Below, in pieces: positions 430 through 49,300 of a stretch of DNA of 64,000 nt. The notes below the pieces were generated by a model. It worked only from the letters and a program-made list of their open reading frames with translations. It was not told where the DNA came from and did no database searches. The stretch's first letter is position 1. Every line of letters begins with the position of its first letter. This DNA is from a virus, in the IMG/VR virus record IMGVR_UViG_3300044971_002537, positions 64,001-128,000 of that record. One strand, given 5' to 3'. A program made the position numbers and the translations under genes.

Positions 430-470
430 GCGAAAAACTCACGATTTGAGTCGCTTGGAAGTTACTGAAG

Positions 471-524
471 TGACACCCGCCACAAGTGGCCGGGTGTAAC
501 AGGAAGGAAGGCGTCTTTCAGCCC
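471..524 (-). repeat. Bipartite hairpin element, copy 1
   Basis: + strand TG-ACAC-CCG-CCACAAGTGGC-CGG-GTGT-AAC-9 nt purine-GGCGTCTTTCAGCCC. Confidence 0.9.
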
Positions 525-530
525 ACCAAT

Positions 531-653: not shown

Positions 654-786
654 TGAGCATTCACGGTTTCGAACCGCGTTTTCAAGATTGATTTGCTGAC
701 AGGTAATTACTCTGTTGCCTTCTGCACGTATCGATCCGTGCTTCCGAGTTCTCTCTTGTGTTTTAGCCAGATTAAACTAAATGCCC
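654..786 (-). ncRNA. tRNA-like RNA with 66-nt region in place of the anticodon loop
   Basis: Acceptor GGGCATT/AATGCTC, D stem GTTT/AAAC, anticodon stem CAAGA/TCTTG, T arm CGCGG-TTCGAAA-CCGTG; loop spans 688-753. Confidence 0.8.
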
Positions 787-818
787 GTGGTGTTTCGGTG
801 TGGTTTATGAAATAAGCC

Positions 819-3324: not shown

Positions 3325-3352
3325 ATTCTACCATACTAGAGACATAAGTCAA
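3325..3352 (-). promoter_or_regulatory. sigma70-like promoter
   Basis: TTGACT-16-TAGAAT. Confidence 0.7.
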
Positions 3353-3396
3353 GTGGAAAAGTGCCGATTTGGTTAGCGGCTCAGGGTGTCGTCTAC

Positions 3397-3467
3397 TGCG
3401 TCCCGCCACAAGTGGCCGGGACGAGCGGGAAGAAAGGGGAGGGGCAGGGCCTTTCGACCCCACCCCT
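3397..3467 (-). repeat. Bipartite hairpin element, copy 3
   Basis: TG-CGTC-CCG-CCACAAGTGGC-CGG-GACG-AGC, longer purine spacer, GGGCCTTTCGACCC hairpin. Confidence 0.85.
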
Positions 3468-3522: not shown

Positions 3523-4800
3523 TCACATCAGTTGGTTGACAATCGCAGCAACCAGATCATGTCCAAACTTGGCAAACTCTGAAGTGTAGTCATCTGCCCC
3601 ACGAGTGTAGTGGTGAGCAAGTTCATGCACCATAGTTCTGCTCAGGTCTTTGTTCTTTTCCCAGAGCATAACTTCACTTTTACCGGAATTGTGCAATCCG
3701 AGGAACCCCGGATGGTGTCCATCCTTAGTATTGTACATGATCAGCTTTGGCCGAGGCAACCCATCCGAAAGACCAACGGTCTCGATCAATTCACAGATAT
3801 CGTTGTAGTGCTTAAGGACAGCTTCGCTCGGAGGAGAGATAAGGAATCCCCTGATCTCTGCTTCACAAACCCCATCAATCCCATTCAATTCTGGGATTTC
3901 GGCAATGATAGACTTGTGCCAGCGTGGATCAATCGCAGTTGCATTCGCGATGGTGAAGTTGGTAGGACATAATCCCACCTTACCAATAAGCTCTCGCCAA
4001 ACCTCAAGGAATTCTTCGCTGAATCCAGAATAGGTCTTCTCAGTTTCAACGAGTTGCATTTGGATAAGAACTGCGTCTCTGATCTTCGCGAGTCGCTCTT
4101 TCGCTTTCTCGTAATAGGTCGTATGGTACTGGATACTGTTGACCAGAGAATCCGAACTGCCAGTACGACACTCGTTGATCGTAAAGTCCATGTTGTAGTC
4201 AAACAGGGAATCATCCGTCAATTCCCGAATGAAAACTCCCTTTCGATAGATTCGACACCTTGAGACTGTGGCCTTATCAATGACCTTTTCGCCTTTCTTG
4301 TCAACGAAGTGCAGGAAGTACTTTCCAATGTTGTCGAAGTATTCCTTCGCCAGATCGGTGTATGGAACAAAAACCGCAACTTCATCGTCAGACGCCTCAA
4401 TCTTGTTCGTGAGAACCAGAAGTTCGCCCGGAATAGCGCCAGCATCCAGAGCGTTTGAGATCCATTCTCGCAATCCAAGGCAGGCAGTCGGCCAGTCTAG
4501 TGTCCCATACTCCAACGCGACGTTGAGCGGGGACTTTTTGCGACTGTGACACATGAGAACCTGCTGGAATGGAATCCCATCGCCCTTCAGGATATCTTTG
4601 GTCTCGAACGTGACTTTCTTCCCATTGATCATGAACACTGGCGATGTGCCATAGGCACGCATCCATGCCAGTGTTCCGAGGAGCGTTCCGCTCCCAAACT
4701 GGCCGATCTTGTCGTCCTTGCCACGAGAAGTGCTAACACCCAGCGTGAACATATCTTCCGGTGTGGTCACGGACTTGCTAACAATCTTAACGTACTTCAT
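3523..4800 (-). CDS. GHKL (HATPase-like) protein with permuted motif order and C-terminal HExxH metallopeptidase-like domain
   Basis: IGQFGSG, LREWISNALDA, MVHELAHHY motifs. Confidence 0.7.
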   Translation of the reverse strand: MKYVKIVSKSVTTPEDMFTLGVSTSRGKDDKIGQFGSGTLLGTLAWMRAYGTSPVFMINGKKVTFETKDILKGDGIPFQQVLMCHSRKKSPLNVALEYGTLDWPTACLGLREWISNALDAGAIPGELLVLTNKIEASDDEVAVFVPYTDLAKEYFDNIGKYFLHFVDKKGEKVIDKATVSRCRIYRKGVFIRELTDDSLFDYNMDFTINECRTGSSDSLVNSIQYHTTYYEKAKERLAKIRDAVLIQMQLVETEKTYSGFSEEFLEVWRELIGKVGLCPTNFTIANATAIDPRWHKSIIAEIPELNGIDGVCEAEIRGFLISPPSEAVLKHYNDICELIETVGLSDGLPRPKLIMYNTKDGHHPGFLGLHNSGKSEVMLWEKNKDLSRTMVHELAHHYTRGADDYTSEFAKFGHDLVAAIVNQLM

Positions 4801-46300: not shown

Positions 46301-49300
46301 TGGTAAATCTGTTTCAGAGGAACAGACTAAGCTAAAGGCTATACAGGAACAAAAGGCACAAGTTTCAACTAGGCCGGGAGAATCTTCCAAGGAATTAGGT
46401 AAGCTTAATGAGGCAGAAGCAAAATCAATTGAGACAATTGATAAACTTAATAAAGAAAGAGATGCATTACGTTCTGTAATCATTGAAGAGAAAAATAATC
46501 TAACTAAGGGACTAAAGTCCGGAACAGCTTCTACTTTTAGGGAATCTGTTCCATTAGCACCTGCTGTTAATAAGCCAGTCGTGCCCCCTAATCCAGCTAT
46601 GGCTGCGTTTGCTAAAATGGCTCAGTCCGGTCCGAATGGCCCTAACGGTCCGAATGGCCCAAATGGCCCGAAAGATAATAGTACAGTTGAAAAAGAAATA
46701 GAAGAAAGGGGTAAGAATTTAACTGGAACATTCTCTACATTGGCTTTGGTTGTATCTGGAGTCGCTTCTCAATATGTAGATCAAGAAACAGCAACTGGTA
46801 GAGCAATTGGAGGAATATTAGATTTTGTGTCTGTTCTTTCTGCTGCTCAGCTTACTTTGTCTCAATTCGGCATAGATCTTGACCCAAAAAAGATTTTTGA
46901 TATTGGAAAAGACCTATTTACCGGAAAAGGTGCTAAATTAGCTGAACAAGTAACTGGTGGGGCGAGACAAGTTGGGAAAAGCGTGTTTGGAGCTGGTAAA
47001 TATGTACAGGGGATTGGTGGCAAACTTGGCCAAGGGGTAGTTGGAAAGGCCGTCACTGGATTAGGATCACAACTTCAAACAGTAGGTGTTGGAGTTGGAT
47101 CTAAAACTGCTTCTGCTGCTATTGGTACTAAGGTTGCATCTGCCGCTACTGCAGCAGCTCCATTTGTAATCGCAGGAGCATCTGTTCTAGCATTCGGGAA
47201 AGGCTTAGATTATCTACTTGGCAGAGAGCAAGAGGCTGCTAAAGCTATTGAAGAAGGCAATATAGCAAAAGCTGGAGAGACGGCAGTATCTGTTCAGGCT
47301 CAAAATGATCTTACGGCTCTGGCTACTGGGGCCGCAGTAGTGGCGACAGCATTTGGAGGCCCGTTAGTGGGTGCTGCTGTTGGCGTAGCTGTAAAACTTG
47401 CTGGGTTTATACCGGGTGTAGAATATGCTATTGGGGGCCTTAGAAATTTAGGAGCTGAGCTTGGACTACTAGAATCAACGACATCTATAGCTGCTAAGGC
47501 TCAATTTGAAGCTGCAAAAAAGAACGCCGAGAAAACAAGAGAAAAGGGACAAGAGCGACTTACAAAGCTTTCCTCAAAAGTAAAAGACAAAGAATCGGCA
47601 GATAAGGTTTTAAATAGTTCTGAGACTAAAGCAAATGTAGCTGCCGCTATCAAGGTTGCAAATGAAGCAAAAGCAGTAATTGCAGAAAACGATAAAGCGA
47701 ATGTAAAAGATGCTTCAAATCTATCATATATAAAATCGTCTTCTAGAGCGGCCAGTGGTGCCGGTGGGCCGCTTGCTGGAAGTCTTGTAAAATTTTTAGG
47801 TAGCTTTGTTGCTTCAGAAGAAGAGACTAAAGCGAGAGATGAAGATAGTACAAAAAGGAAACAGGAAAGCCAAGCTGAGGCTAAAAAAAGTTTAGAACTT
47901 ATTATGCCCGCTATTGATTTCAAGATGGGTGAATCTGCTGATGCTGGTAAGGGTTGGACAGAATTTTTAGATAGCTTAGGAGAAAATAAAGCACTTGTTT
48001 TAGCTTCTGGAGAAGCTACTAATTTACAAGAAAAATTTGATGAGTTAGCAATTGCTGCAAAAACCGAAGCCGCTATAAGGGCTGTACTAAATGCACAGAT
48101 GCAAAAACAACTTATTACTACTACCGGGATTGCTGAAGCTAATAAAAAAGCAATTGCCGCATCTGAACTTGGAAACGTAGTCTCTGGTTTAGCTTCTGAT
48201 AGCTTTAGGGGCTCTTCTCTTTCTTCAGCCGCTTCTAGTGAAGACATAGATAAGCAATCTAGGGCTGCTGAGGCACTAGGAATAAAGGGCTATAAAGAAA
48301 ATGTTTCTGCGGTCACAAAAGGCAAGTCAGAGATGACTAAGCTAGAAACCGCTTTTGCTACTGCAACTCCCGAGAAAAGACAGGCAGCTCAAGACGCTAT
48401 AACAGCTAAAAAGAAAGAAATAATTAATGCGACTGGTGGAGATGCTACTGGACTAGAAGGTGAAGCTCTTGATAAGGCCTATGAATCTACCATTGAAGGT
48501 TCAGATAAGCTTAAAAACAGTCTAATAGAAGCCGCTAAGAACACAGAAACTGCAATTAATTCATACATAGATAGTGTATCGCGAGCTTCTCAAGCTCAGA
48601 CAGCATACAATGAGGCAGTATTTAATAATGCTCAAGCTGCTCAGAATAGACAGAAAGATTTACAATCATTCAAGGTTGGTGGATCTACTATATCTGAAAT
48701 TAGAGATAGAAAATCGGCTATAAGCACTAATGACGCTAGGGCGAATGCTTCTAGATTAAATTTTGTAGGAACATCAAGCAGGCTTGCTTCTACAGGAATT
48801 AAAATAGCACAAACGCAAGCTCAAGGAAATATAGTCAGTCCAGAGCTTGCTAACACGTTTGCTGCCCTACAAATAAAAGCTAAGGAACAGGCAGATGCTA
48901 TAGGGCTAGAAACTAAAAATAGGCAAGCTCTTATAGAGGCAATAAAAGAAGAGATGGAGATTGAAAAGAATCGCGGTCAAACATTTGAGGATTTGAATCT
49001 TGCTCTCAGCGGAGGACTTGGAAAGCAAGCGAAGAAGGAGGCAGAAAAACAGGTTAAGGCAATCAGCAGGGTTGAAGAAATTAGAAAGACCCAAGGAGAC
49101 GAAGCTGCAAATGCCCAACTCGGTAAAGAAATAGACCGGGGTACTCTAAATAGACAGATGTACACTAGCGTAATCCAAACAGAAGAAAGCCAAAGATTTA
49201 ATCAGAGTGCTTCTATGATGGGAGCTAATCGTTTTGAGAGTATAGCTGGTCCCGGAGCGATTACACAAGACTCAAGATCTATAGCTACTGGAAGAATGAC

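Follow-up and report, generated by a model that had tools for sequence, protein, structure and literature searches.

In 2007, engineers invented the transfer RNA (tRNA) scaffold to stabilise foreign RNAs in bacteria. In this design (Ponchon and Dardel), the acceptor, T and D arms are kept and the anticodon stem-loop is replaced, and the products are precisely processed, modified and stable in E. coli (PMC3753655). YrlA-type bacterial and phage Y RNAs (RF02553; Chen et al. 2014, PMC4201824) are non-decoding and possess a tRNA-like D/T elbow. The tRNAs of Lak megaphages contain 'enigmatic', highly conserved introns (Devoto et al. 2019, PMC6784885), and these are the nearest published observation to the element reported here. 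Symmetric palindromic kissing loops are a hallmark of the homo-oligomeric RNAs OLE (a dimer), GOLLD and ROOL (cages), of which GOLLD and ROOL are phage-borne and located near tRNA islands (PMC12286853). Here we describe a tRNA-shaped RNA of 133 nucleotides (nt) encoded by the IMG/VR virus record IMGVR_UViG_3300044971_002537, a linear phage record of 139.8 kb estimated to be 72% complete. The window analysed is the 64,000 nt stretch covering bases 64001–128000 of this record. The RNA lies on the minus strand (window 786 to 654), and combines a tRNA body with a branched head in place of the anticodon loop. We propose that it is probably a functional, non-decoding non-coding RNA of scaffold type bearing a functional head, belonging to a clade of tailed phages that are uncultured and mostly from freshwater.

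Structure and conservation of the tRNA-shaped RNA

With introns allowed (ARAGORN -i), a full cloverleaf was drawn, consisting of a 7 base pair (bp) acceptor stem, a D arm, a 5 bp anticodon stem, a 4 nt variable loop and a T arm. A region of 66 nt stands where the anticodon loop would be. ARAGORN -i labels the element 'tRNA-Val GAC, 59-nt intron' and places the intron inside the anticodon; the loop forced by this assignment, GAGACAA, has G32 and A33, and hence is without U33. Plain ARAGORN does not call the element, and reports nearby only the ordinary tRNAs Glu-UUC (2291–2362) and Ile-UAU (2464–2537). Rfam 15 was searched at gathering scores and at E≤10 with the 64 kb window, a 2.7 kb segment and the element alone (161 nt), and zero families matched the element; the families covered include hammerhead, twister, pistol, hatchet, YrlA, transfer-messenger RNA (tmRNA), GOLLD and ROOL. 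The single-sequence folding z-score of the element is only −2.3, so support for the structure comes from comparison rather than from thermodynamics.

The 5′ end of the RNA is at window position 786, and RNA position p equals 787 minus the window coordinate. The coordinates that follow are those of the window, and all features are on the minus strand. The whole RNA (654–786) scores 150.7 bits against covariance model R1, which was built in this analysis, and its homologues were aligned in alignments A3 and A5. The acceptor 5′ strand GGGCAUU (780–786) pairs with AAUGCUC (655–661), with compensatory changes in 6 of 7 pairs, and is followed by the D arm (760–777; stem GUUU/AAAC, 10 nt loop AAUCUGGCUA), which retains equivalents of A14, G18 G19 and A21. 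The D stem is nearly invariant, 3 of its 4 pairs being without any variation, and mean identity over the D arm is 0.84. The T arm CGCGG-UUCGAAA-CCGUG (662–678) contains equivalents of G53, U54 U55 C56, A58 and C61, and 2 of its 5 pairs show compensatory changes. The discriminator is an A at 654, and CCA is not encoded.

The insert extends the anticodon helix up to a three-way junction, from which two hairpins branch. The anticodon stem CAAGA and its extension (a G A internal loop, then G A; 750–758) pair with 683–691 (UC AA UCUUG), so that the helix in the window comprises 5 bp, a 2x2 internal loop and 2 bp. In the homologous locus L009 it is an unbroken 9 bp (CAGGGAGUG/CACUUUUUG), and in L019 and L029 the outer pair of the extension is G-C instead of A-U. 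The junction strand J1, ACUCGGAA (742–749; UUUCGAA in L011; identity 0.86), leads into hairpin 1 (724–741), whose stem GCACG/CGUGC carries compensatory changes in 4 of 5 pairs and whose loop is G-AUCGAU-A (729–736). The last 7 nt of J1 resemble the outline of an anticodon loop, Y-U-NNN-A-A, as C-U-CGG-A-A in the window and U-U-UCG-A-A in L011 (read from A5). Junction strand J2, AGAAG (719–723), is GGAAG in most variants (RGAAG; identity 0.70). Hairpin 2 (695–718) has the form GC/(A)ACAG...CUGU(C) A GC with a bulged A, a covarying stem and the loop AG-UAAUUA-C (703–711). The final strand J3, AAA (692–694), is reported as invariant, with a mean pairwise identity of 0.91.

Another 13 loci share the design according to the covariance model, with scores of 117–155 bits. 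Among contigs fetched via relatives of the neighbouring DUF7227 protein, ARAGORN -i and R1 located the element in L005/L006/L007, L009, L011/L012 and L030, while pattern scans added L018–L023 from metagenomes and L029 from a 110 kb IMG/VR contig. In total the family comprises approximately 8 distinct sequence variants, all from related contigs of uncultured phages.

Pairs were counted on A5, the alignment based on the model. In this alignment 95.8% of pair cells are standard pairs, a proportion that becomes 26–42% once the partners are slid, and 18 of the 35 modelled base pairs display changes on both sides. The covariation observed was reached by 0 of 500 shuffles. The acceptor 5′ strand is rewritten yet remains paired (GGGCAUU, GCCUGCU, GCCUGCC, GCUCACU, GCCCAUU and GCCCACU), the hairpin 1 stem occurs as GCACG/CGUGC, GCAUA/UAUGC, GCAUG/CAUGC, GUAUG/CAUAC and ACAUG/CAUGU, and in the hairpin 2 stem ACAG/CUGU is replaced by ACGG/CCGU and A.C by G-C or A-U.

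Across seven lineages, mean pairwise identity is 0.83 for the insert versus 0.68 for the tRNA body. By region, it is 1.00 for the hairpin 1 loop, 0.87 for the hairpin 2 loop, 0.71 for the T loop, 0.57 for the acceptor stem and 0.24 for the discriminator (A, U or G). The hairpin 1 loop G-AUCGAU-A is 100% identical across variants. In hairpin 2 the loop core UAAUUA is invariant, and its flanks change from AG to CC in L029 and from C to A in L009, L011 and L030. The T loop UUCGAAA becomes UGCGAAC or UGCGAAG in L019, L021 and L029, and in these same lineages the CUGG of the D loop becomes GCCAG; this joint change, which represents a single evolutionary event only, fits a maintained elbow contact. 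Judged from these comparisons, the structure is under selection, the body being kept by shape and the head by sequence.

These results can be set against an earlier, sequence-only reading of the window, which had described paired acceptor, D, anticodon-stem and T arms around a 66 nt loop region with hairpins GCACG/CGUGC and ACAG/CUGU. The loop letters it quoted match the sequence exactly. The ARAGORN -i analysis it had named recovers the cloverleaf once introns are allowed, and together with the covariation bears out the paired arms; both hairpins are real, and the covariation it had looked to in homologues of the insert is seen in the stems of both. It had named YrlA, tmRNA and GOLLD as Rfam families for comparison, and the element matches none of these even at E≤10. 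It had also considered that homologues might turn out to be normal tRNAs carrying random insertions without conservation, a pattern that is not seen, as the insert is the best-conserved part and its stems covary. Two features go beyond that reading, namely that the anticodon stem runs on as a 9 bp helix to a three-way junction, and that both hairpin loops contain 6 nt palindromes.

The family is genuine but narrow, as far as the searches reach. The metagenome pattern scan returned six true loci and one AT-rich chance match (L024), and a junction-anchored pattern returned one true match (L029) and two chance matches in coding sequence (L027 and L028) from IMG/VR. Neither a loop-anchored pattern nor an exact 3′-half pattern had any match in IMG/VR, and searches there with neighbouring proteins gave one non-syntenic locus and nothing more. 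No match to the locus or the element was obtained by blastn against 50,697 GenBank phage records. Among 185,579 prokaryote species, represented by one genome each, 27 chance matches were found, zero of which pass the model, so no host or prophage copy was detected. A second copy of the module was not found elsewhere in the phage genome, nor was the element found at the distant DUF7227 loci L008, L010, L014–L017 and L031. Literature searches yielded no description of the tRNA-shaped RNA.

Transcription signals and neighbouring RNA modules

In L019 and L020, a promoter TTGACA-16-TACAAT with an extended −10 TG (11 of 12 matches; 4544–4517) precedes the RNA (4491–4359), and a terminator (4353–4334) begins 5 nt past the RNA end. 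L021 has the same promoter and RNA as L019, followed by a different terminator, also 5 nt downstream. By these predicted signals, the RNA is a standalone gene in the L019/L021 lineage, with a sigma-70 promoter close to consensus before it and an intrinsic terminator behind it.

In the window, a promoter-like site TTGATC-18-TATAAT (943–972 (−); 10 of 12 matches) probably marks where a co-transcript of approximately 400 nt starts, and an intrinsic terminator with a 12 bp stem and a T run (533–561 (−)) ends this predicted non-coding transcript. No credible open reading frame (ORF) is present in the approximately 400 nt between the two (972–943 and 561–533). The unit consists, in order, of an upstream domain, the tRNA-shaped RNA and a downstream domain.

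The upstream domain (797–945 (−)) measures approximately 110–135 nt, with CCCGGCGUCAGUCGGG as its 5′ hairpin and further stems enclosed by the long-range helix GACACACAGGGGG.../...CCCUGUGU. It is kept in L029 and L030, L005 retains the 5′ hairpin alone, and the same −10 region and 5′ hairpin lie upstream of the element in L005, L029 and L030; from this distribution the domain looks like an insertable module. The downstream domain (566–653 (−)) directly follows the RNA at its 3′ side and forms a four-way junction, with a closing stem CAUAUACU/AGUAUAUG around three hairpins. It is common to L005, L022 and L009, absent in the L019 lineage and without an Rfam match. Its tetraloop hairpin occurs as GGUG-GCAA-CACC, GGCA-GAAA-UGCC and GGUGGC-UUCG-GCCAC, with switches in L005 and L009. 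The modules are combined differently among phages, with the tRNA-shaped RNA as the constant, autonomous unit.

A leader CAC(C/U)A(C/U) directly 5′ of G1 is found in every variant (window 787–796), the sequence further upstream being unrelated. This leader may provide an RNase P context or act as a processing signal. A hairpin-pair element occupies window 430–530, between the terminator of the RNA and the promoter of the DUF7227 gene (TTGACA-16-TACAAT, 429–402), and recurs at the corresponding position in L019 and L020. The DUF7227 gene lies directly downstream of the RNA, and its product has many metagenomic relatives; no sequence relative in the PDB and no NCBIfam match were found for it, and an Atlas search returned its own family only. 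We do not claim a functional tie between the RNA and DUF7227, given that a terminator and a separate promoter lie between them and that most DUF7227 phages are without the RNA.

Decoding and candidate functions

The element displays the cloverleaf and conserved elbow residues of a canonical tRNA, with covarying arms, and R1 cross-matches genuine tRNA-Glu genes at 28–32 bits via the body alone. A 7 nt loop with U33 and a readable anticodon is lacking, and there is no match to RF00005 even at E≤10. All ways of leaving 7 loop nucleotides on a 5 bp stem were enumerated for every variant in A5, and U33 is never restored, which confirms the earlier observation that no simple excision would recreate a U33-anticodon arrangement. 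The anticodons forced by ARAGORN disagree among variants (Val GAC versus Glu UUC), and an allele of the body without the insert was not found in any fetched locus, every member having the insert. None of the phage's tRNAs encodes CCA, so its absence from the element is uninformative. The acceptor variation is given little weight; the unconserved discriminator is a somewhat stronger hint that the RNA maintains no identity for a synthetase. As judged by comparison of the variants, the element is almost certainly neither a decoding tRNA nor a dead gene.

A decoding tRNA interrupted by an intron is what ARAGORN -i reports. On this reading, the insert of approximately 59 nt would be a new protein-dependent or self-cleaving intron, and the halves would perhaps be joined by a phage RNA ligase; the phage does encode an Rnl-type RNA ligase (PF09414, E=1.9e-15), J1 is shaped like an anticodon loop (CUCGGAA; UUUCGAA in L011), and highly conserved tRNA introns that remain unexplained have been reported in Lak megaphages (PMC6784885). 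We nevertheless regard this as quite improbable. In no variant does an excision give a 5 bp stem and a 7 nt loop that includes U33, below the junction the helix measures approximately 9 bp rather than 5, and conservation is higher in the insert than in the 'exons'. Neither a tRNA-splicing endonuclease (PF01974) nor RtcB was found in the 72%-complete record when positive controls were used, and nor was a CCA-adding enzyme. The insert had previously been judged far below the length of a group I or II intron, and this is supported: it measures 59–66 nt versus approximately 200 nt or more needed, and has no match to an intron or ribozyme family (Rfam, E≤10). An archaeal- or eukaryal-type intron was also rejected, since the borders show no bulge-helix-bulge (the helix goes on for approximately 9 bp until the three-way junction) and both promoters and terminators are of bacterial type. 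At the other extreme lies a dead tRNA gene with a junk insertion, or a tRNA remnant containing palindromic operators that act at the DNA level. Both hairpins are indeed near-perfect inverted repeats in DNA (GCACGGATCGATACGTGC and ACAGAGTAATTACCTGT), and symmetric half-site changes can imitate covariation. However, compensatory changes are also present in the acceptor, anticodon and T stems, the G-U wobbles in the hairpin stems (pairs 47-64 and 74-90) would be mismatches in DNA, and operators keep their arms and vary in the centre, the opposite of what the element does. A pseudogene fails to account for the covariation, the invariant loops and the promoter and terminator that the element has to itself in L019 and L021, and both of these explanations are highly improbable. 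The remaining alternative accepts a functional RNA and assigns it a different task, in which the tRNA body lures a host tRNA-targeting defence enzyme, whether an anticodon nuclease or a toxin that modifies the acceptor end, or else a tRNA-binding factor, and the altered anticodon region, being uncleavable or inhibitory, protects the tRNA pool during infection. Such a decoy or sponge, a role that the sequence-only reading had also raised, would find all elements for elbow and minihelix recognition in the body, and the resemblance of J1 to an anticodon loop could matter for this role. The same genome also encodes an RNA-damage-response set (RNA ligase, a macro-domain protein, an HD_4 alarmone-hydrolase-like protein and a tmRNA-like RNA), and related phages possess a second, probably non-decoding tRNA look-alike. 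We consider a decoy improbable, as it has no need of the two invariant hairpin loops with palindromic cores and leaves them unexplained, the variable discriminator and 1-72 pair argue against mimicry of one specific acceptor end, and no defence gene or target was identified.

Several other candidates were tried and rejected. The sequence-only reading had noted a D stem, unlike tmRNA, and tmRNA features are indeed lacking: the 3-70 pair is G-C (C-G or U-G elsewhere) rather than G3-U70, there is no tag, and both ARAGORN -m and Rfam RF00023 are silent here. A hammerhead-like three-way junction is not compatible with J1, as CUCGGAA misfits the invariant CUGAUGA core. No convincing complementarity exists for a loop-loop contact between the two hairpins of the purine-riboswitch kind. 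The likeness of the hairpin 2 loop GUAAU(U)A to the 1095 loop of the 23S GTPase centre and to the UGUAAU of the signal recognition particle Alu domain is too short to count.

In the scaffold-type RNA that we favour, transcription would occur alone or together with the neighbouring RNA modules. The body, with its 12 bp acceptor/T minihelix, D arm and D/T elbow, would be a substrate for the host tRNA pathway, and RNase P processing at the 5′ end, 3′ trimming, CCA addition and modification of the elbow would give a stable species of approximately 136 nt. We infer such maturation and stabilisation from the retained 7+5 bp minihelix and the elbow equivalents of G18 G19, U54 U55 C56 and A58, together with the likeness to the engineered scaffold. 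The sequence-only reading had likewise suggested a tRNA body that acts as a processing and stability scaffold presenting a cargo RNA; the presentation of a cargo fits the architecture and the promoter-RNA-terminator units of L019 and L021, and the processing and stability it ascribed to the body would follow by analogy. The head would be the effector, composed of a helix of approximately 9 bp, the three-way junction, two hairpins whose loops are invariant, and junction strands rich in purines.

Both loop cores, AUCGAU and UAAUUA, are perfect 6 nt self-complements, and both loops are predicted to be unpaired and accessible in the monomer. For two random loops, one of 8 nt and one of 9 nt, the probability that a 6 nt palindrome occurs in both is approximately 0.002, a post-hoc figure. 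With flanks included, the predicted self-duplexes have energies of approximately −6.5 and −6.2 kcal/mol. Hence, provided the rest of the proposal holds, the function that we tentatively favour for the head is RNA-RNA pairing via the two palindromic loops, although we hold this with well under even confidence. Pairing through the AUCGAU and UAAUUA loops would lead to symmetric kissing-loop dimers or rings displaying tRNA bodies. A self-assembling particle, in which palindromic kissing contacts give head-to-head dimers or closed rings with the tRNA bodies outside, is unlikely. If true, the particle would be in principle a miniature, tRNA-tipped relative of the ROOL and GOLLD cages, and could gather or block ribosomes, RNase P or defence nucleases. 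Were self-assembly to proceed through the loops, no natural homo-oligomeric RNA of this kind would be smaller, and it would be an easy structural system.

A number of observations weigh against the proposal. The alignment A5, on which the pair counts are based, was fitted to the model; plain MAFFT alignments agree with its pairing result. The family is small and narrow, its approximately 8 variants all lying upstream of the same DUF7227 gene, and the invariance of the loops rests on limited divergence, such that no palindrome-to-palindrome switch is observable. The genuine tRNA-Glu of these phages likewise varies much in its acceptor stem, and hence acceptor variation alone is no proof of lost aminoacylation identity. 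With respect to the head, a UAAUUA duplex without its flanks is very weak (−0.4 kcal/mol). Furthermore, the UCGG of J1 (UCGA in L011) is complementary to the UCGA of the hairpin 1 loop, the change from G to A opposite U keeping the pair. A 4 bp H-type pseudoknot between J1 and the hairpin 1 loop is sterically plausible, and the AUCGAU palindrome would then be incidental. The head would in that case be a compact knob for some protein or RNA partner, and the UAAUUA palindrome alone would be left unexplained.

Further tRNA-like RNAs and genes were observed in these phages and others. A second tRNA-shaped RNA family, T2, is located at L009:3249–3378, L011 ~1270–1400, L030 ~3330–3460 and L005 ~3670–3790, and was not found in the genome of the window phage. 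It has acceptor, D and T arms, a 6 bp 'anticodon' hairpin with a variable loop of 4–5 nt, and a conserved variable region of approximately 60 nt with two hairpins; T2 is probably also non-decoding. A tmRNA-like RNA of 277 nt is present at L003:9453–9729 (−), corresponding to genome ~47453–47729. It matches RF00023 with 41.6 bits (E=1.7e-13), short of the gathering score (47), is not called by ARAGORN -m, and adjoins the genes for the Rnl-type RNA ligase, the HD_4 protein and the macro-domain protein. An ATP-dependent DNA ligase at L003:15288–17904 (−) is apparently interrupted by an intein, in three consecutive ORFs that encode Hint with the intein N-part, DUF7487 with a nuclease-like region, and the intein C-part fused to ligase domains. 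An unrelated phage tRNA on a 138,689 nt IMG/VR contig (L073:1570–1744 (−)) has a clean body GCCCACG...CGUGGGCA; behind UUCAUA, which resembles an anticodon loop, it carries an insertion of approximately 100 nt, less than a group I intron would need. ARAGORN also reports tRNA-like genes with abnormal loops in tRNA clusters, at L008:2492–2564 and L009:886–958, with the 4-letter 'ggtg' and the 2-letter 'ga' as anticodons. Beside the tRNA-Glu, the window has Ile(UAU) (2464–2537 (−)) where the closely related L005 has a Met/Ile2-type tRNA (CAU; 1971–2044); in Rfam the window Ile(UAU) tRNA gives only a weak tRNA-Sec match (27.5 bits).

Comparison with known systems

Phage T4 encodes stable RNAs known as 'species 1 and 2' (rnaC and rnaD), which are non-tRNA molecules of approximately 120–140 nt located in a tRNA cluster and matured by the tRNA pathway. 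A literature search on these RNAs returned nothing, and their likeness to the phage RNA is a lead only. Further examples of symmetric kissing loops are the dimerisation initiation site (DIS) of HIV-1 and the packaging RNA (pRNA) of phi29, the latter likewise built as a three-way junction, whose two interacting loops sit on a terminal helix.

The RNA described here has, like OLE, GOLLD and ROOL, conserved loops with palindromic cores between unpaired bases, and GOLLD and ROOL are likewise phage-encoded near tRNA genes. In contrast, these RNAs, the HIV-1 DIS and the phi29 pRNA measure 120–800 nt and have no tRNA body, and oligomerisation of the present RNA is put forward only by analogy. Membership of the GOLLD, ROOL or OLE families was rejected on the grounds that there is no Rfam match and that the RNA measures 133 nt versus 500–800 nt or more.

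The Lak megaphage introns resemble the present element in that phage tRNA genes are broken in the anticodon region by short conserved inserts of no known intron class. They differ in having assignable anticodons and insert-less alleles, whereas for the present RNA neither a restorable loop nor an insert-less allele was found. YrlA shares the non-decoding nature, the D/T elbow, an occurrence in phages and a second module at the site of the anticodon arm. However, YrlA is permuted, ends in a Ro-binding stem, has a closed 'acceptor' and a GNCGAAN0-1G motif, and has Ro60/Rsr as a neighbour, while the phage RNA ends at a normal, open 7 bp acceptor stem. A Y RNA was thus rejected: a genome search that recovered its positive controls gave no TROVE match, the acceptor is open and RF02553 is not matched.

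Standard annotation with plain ARAGORN and Rfam misses an RNA of this type, or mislabels it as an intron-bearing tRNA. The head is a compact module of approximately 60 nt, with two hairpins and invariant palindromic loops, which makes its function directly testable.

The closest architectural counterpart is the engineered tRNA scaffold. Both keep the acceptor, T and D arms, and in both the anticodon stem serves as a helix bearing a structured RNA in place of the loop. The scaffold is man-made; the phage design is natural and evolutionarily maintained, and its cargo is one conserved three-way-junction module. The architecture is shared, whereas processing and stability in vivo are known for the scaffold and would apply to the phage RNA by analogy. 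On this comparison, the phage RNA resembles a tRNA scaffold and is a member of no catalogued family, and the locus suggests that phages may already use the trick devised by engineers to obtain stable foreign RNA in bacteria.

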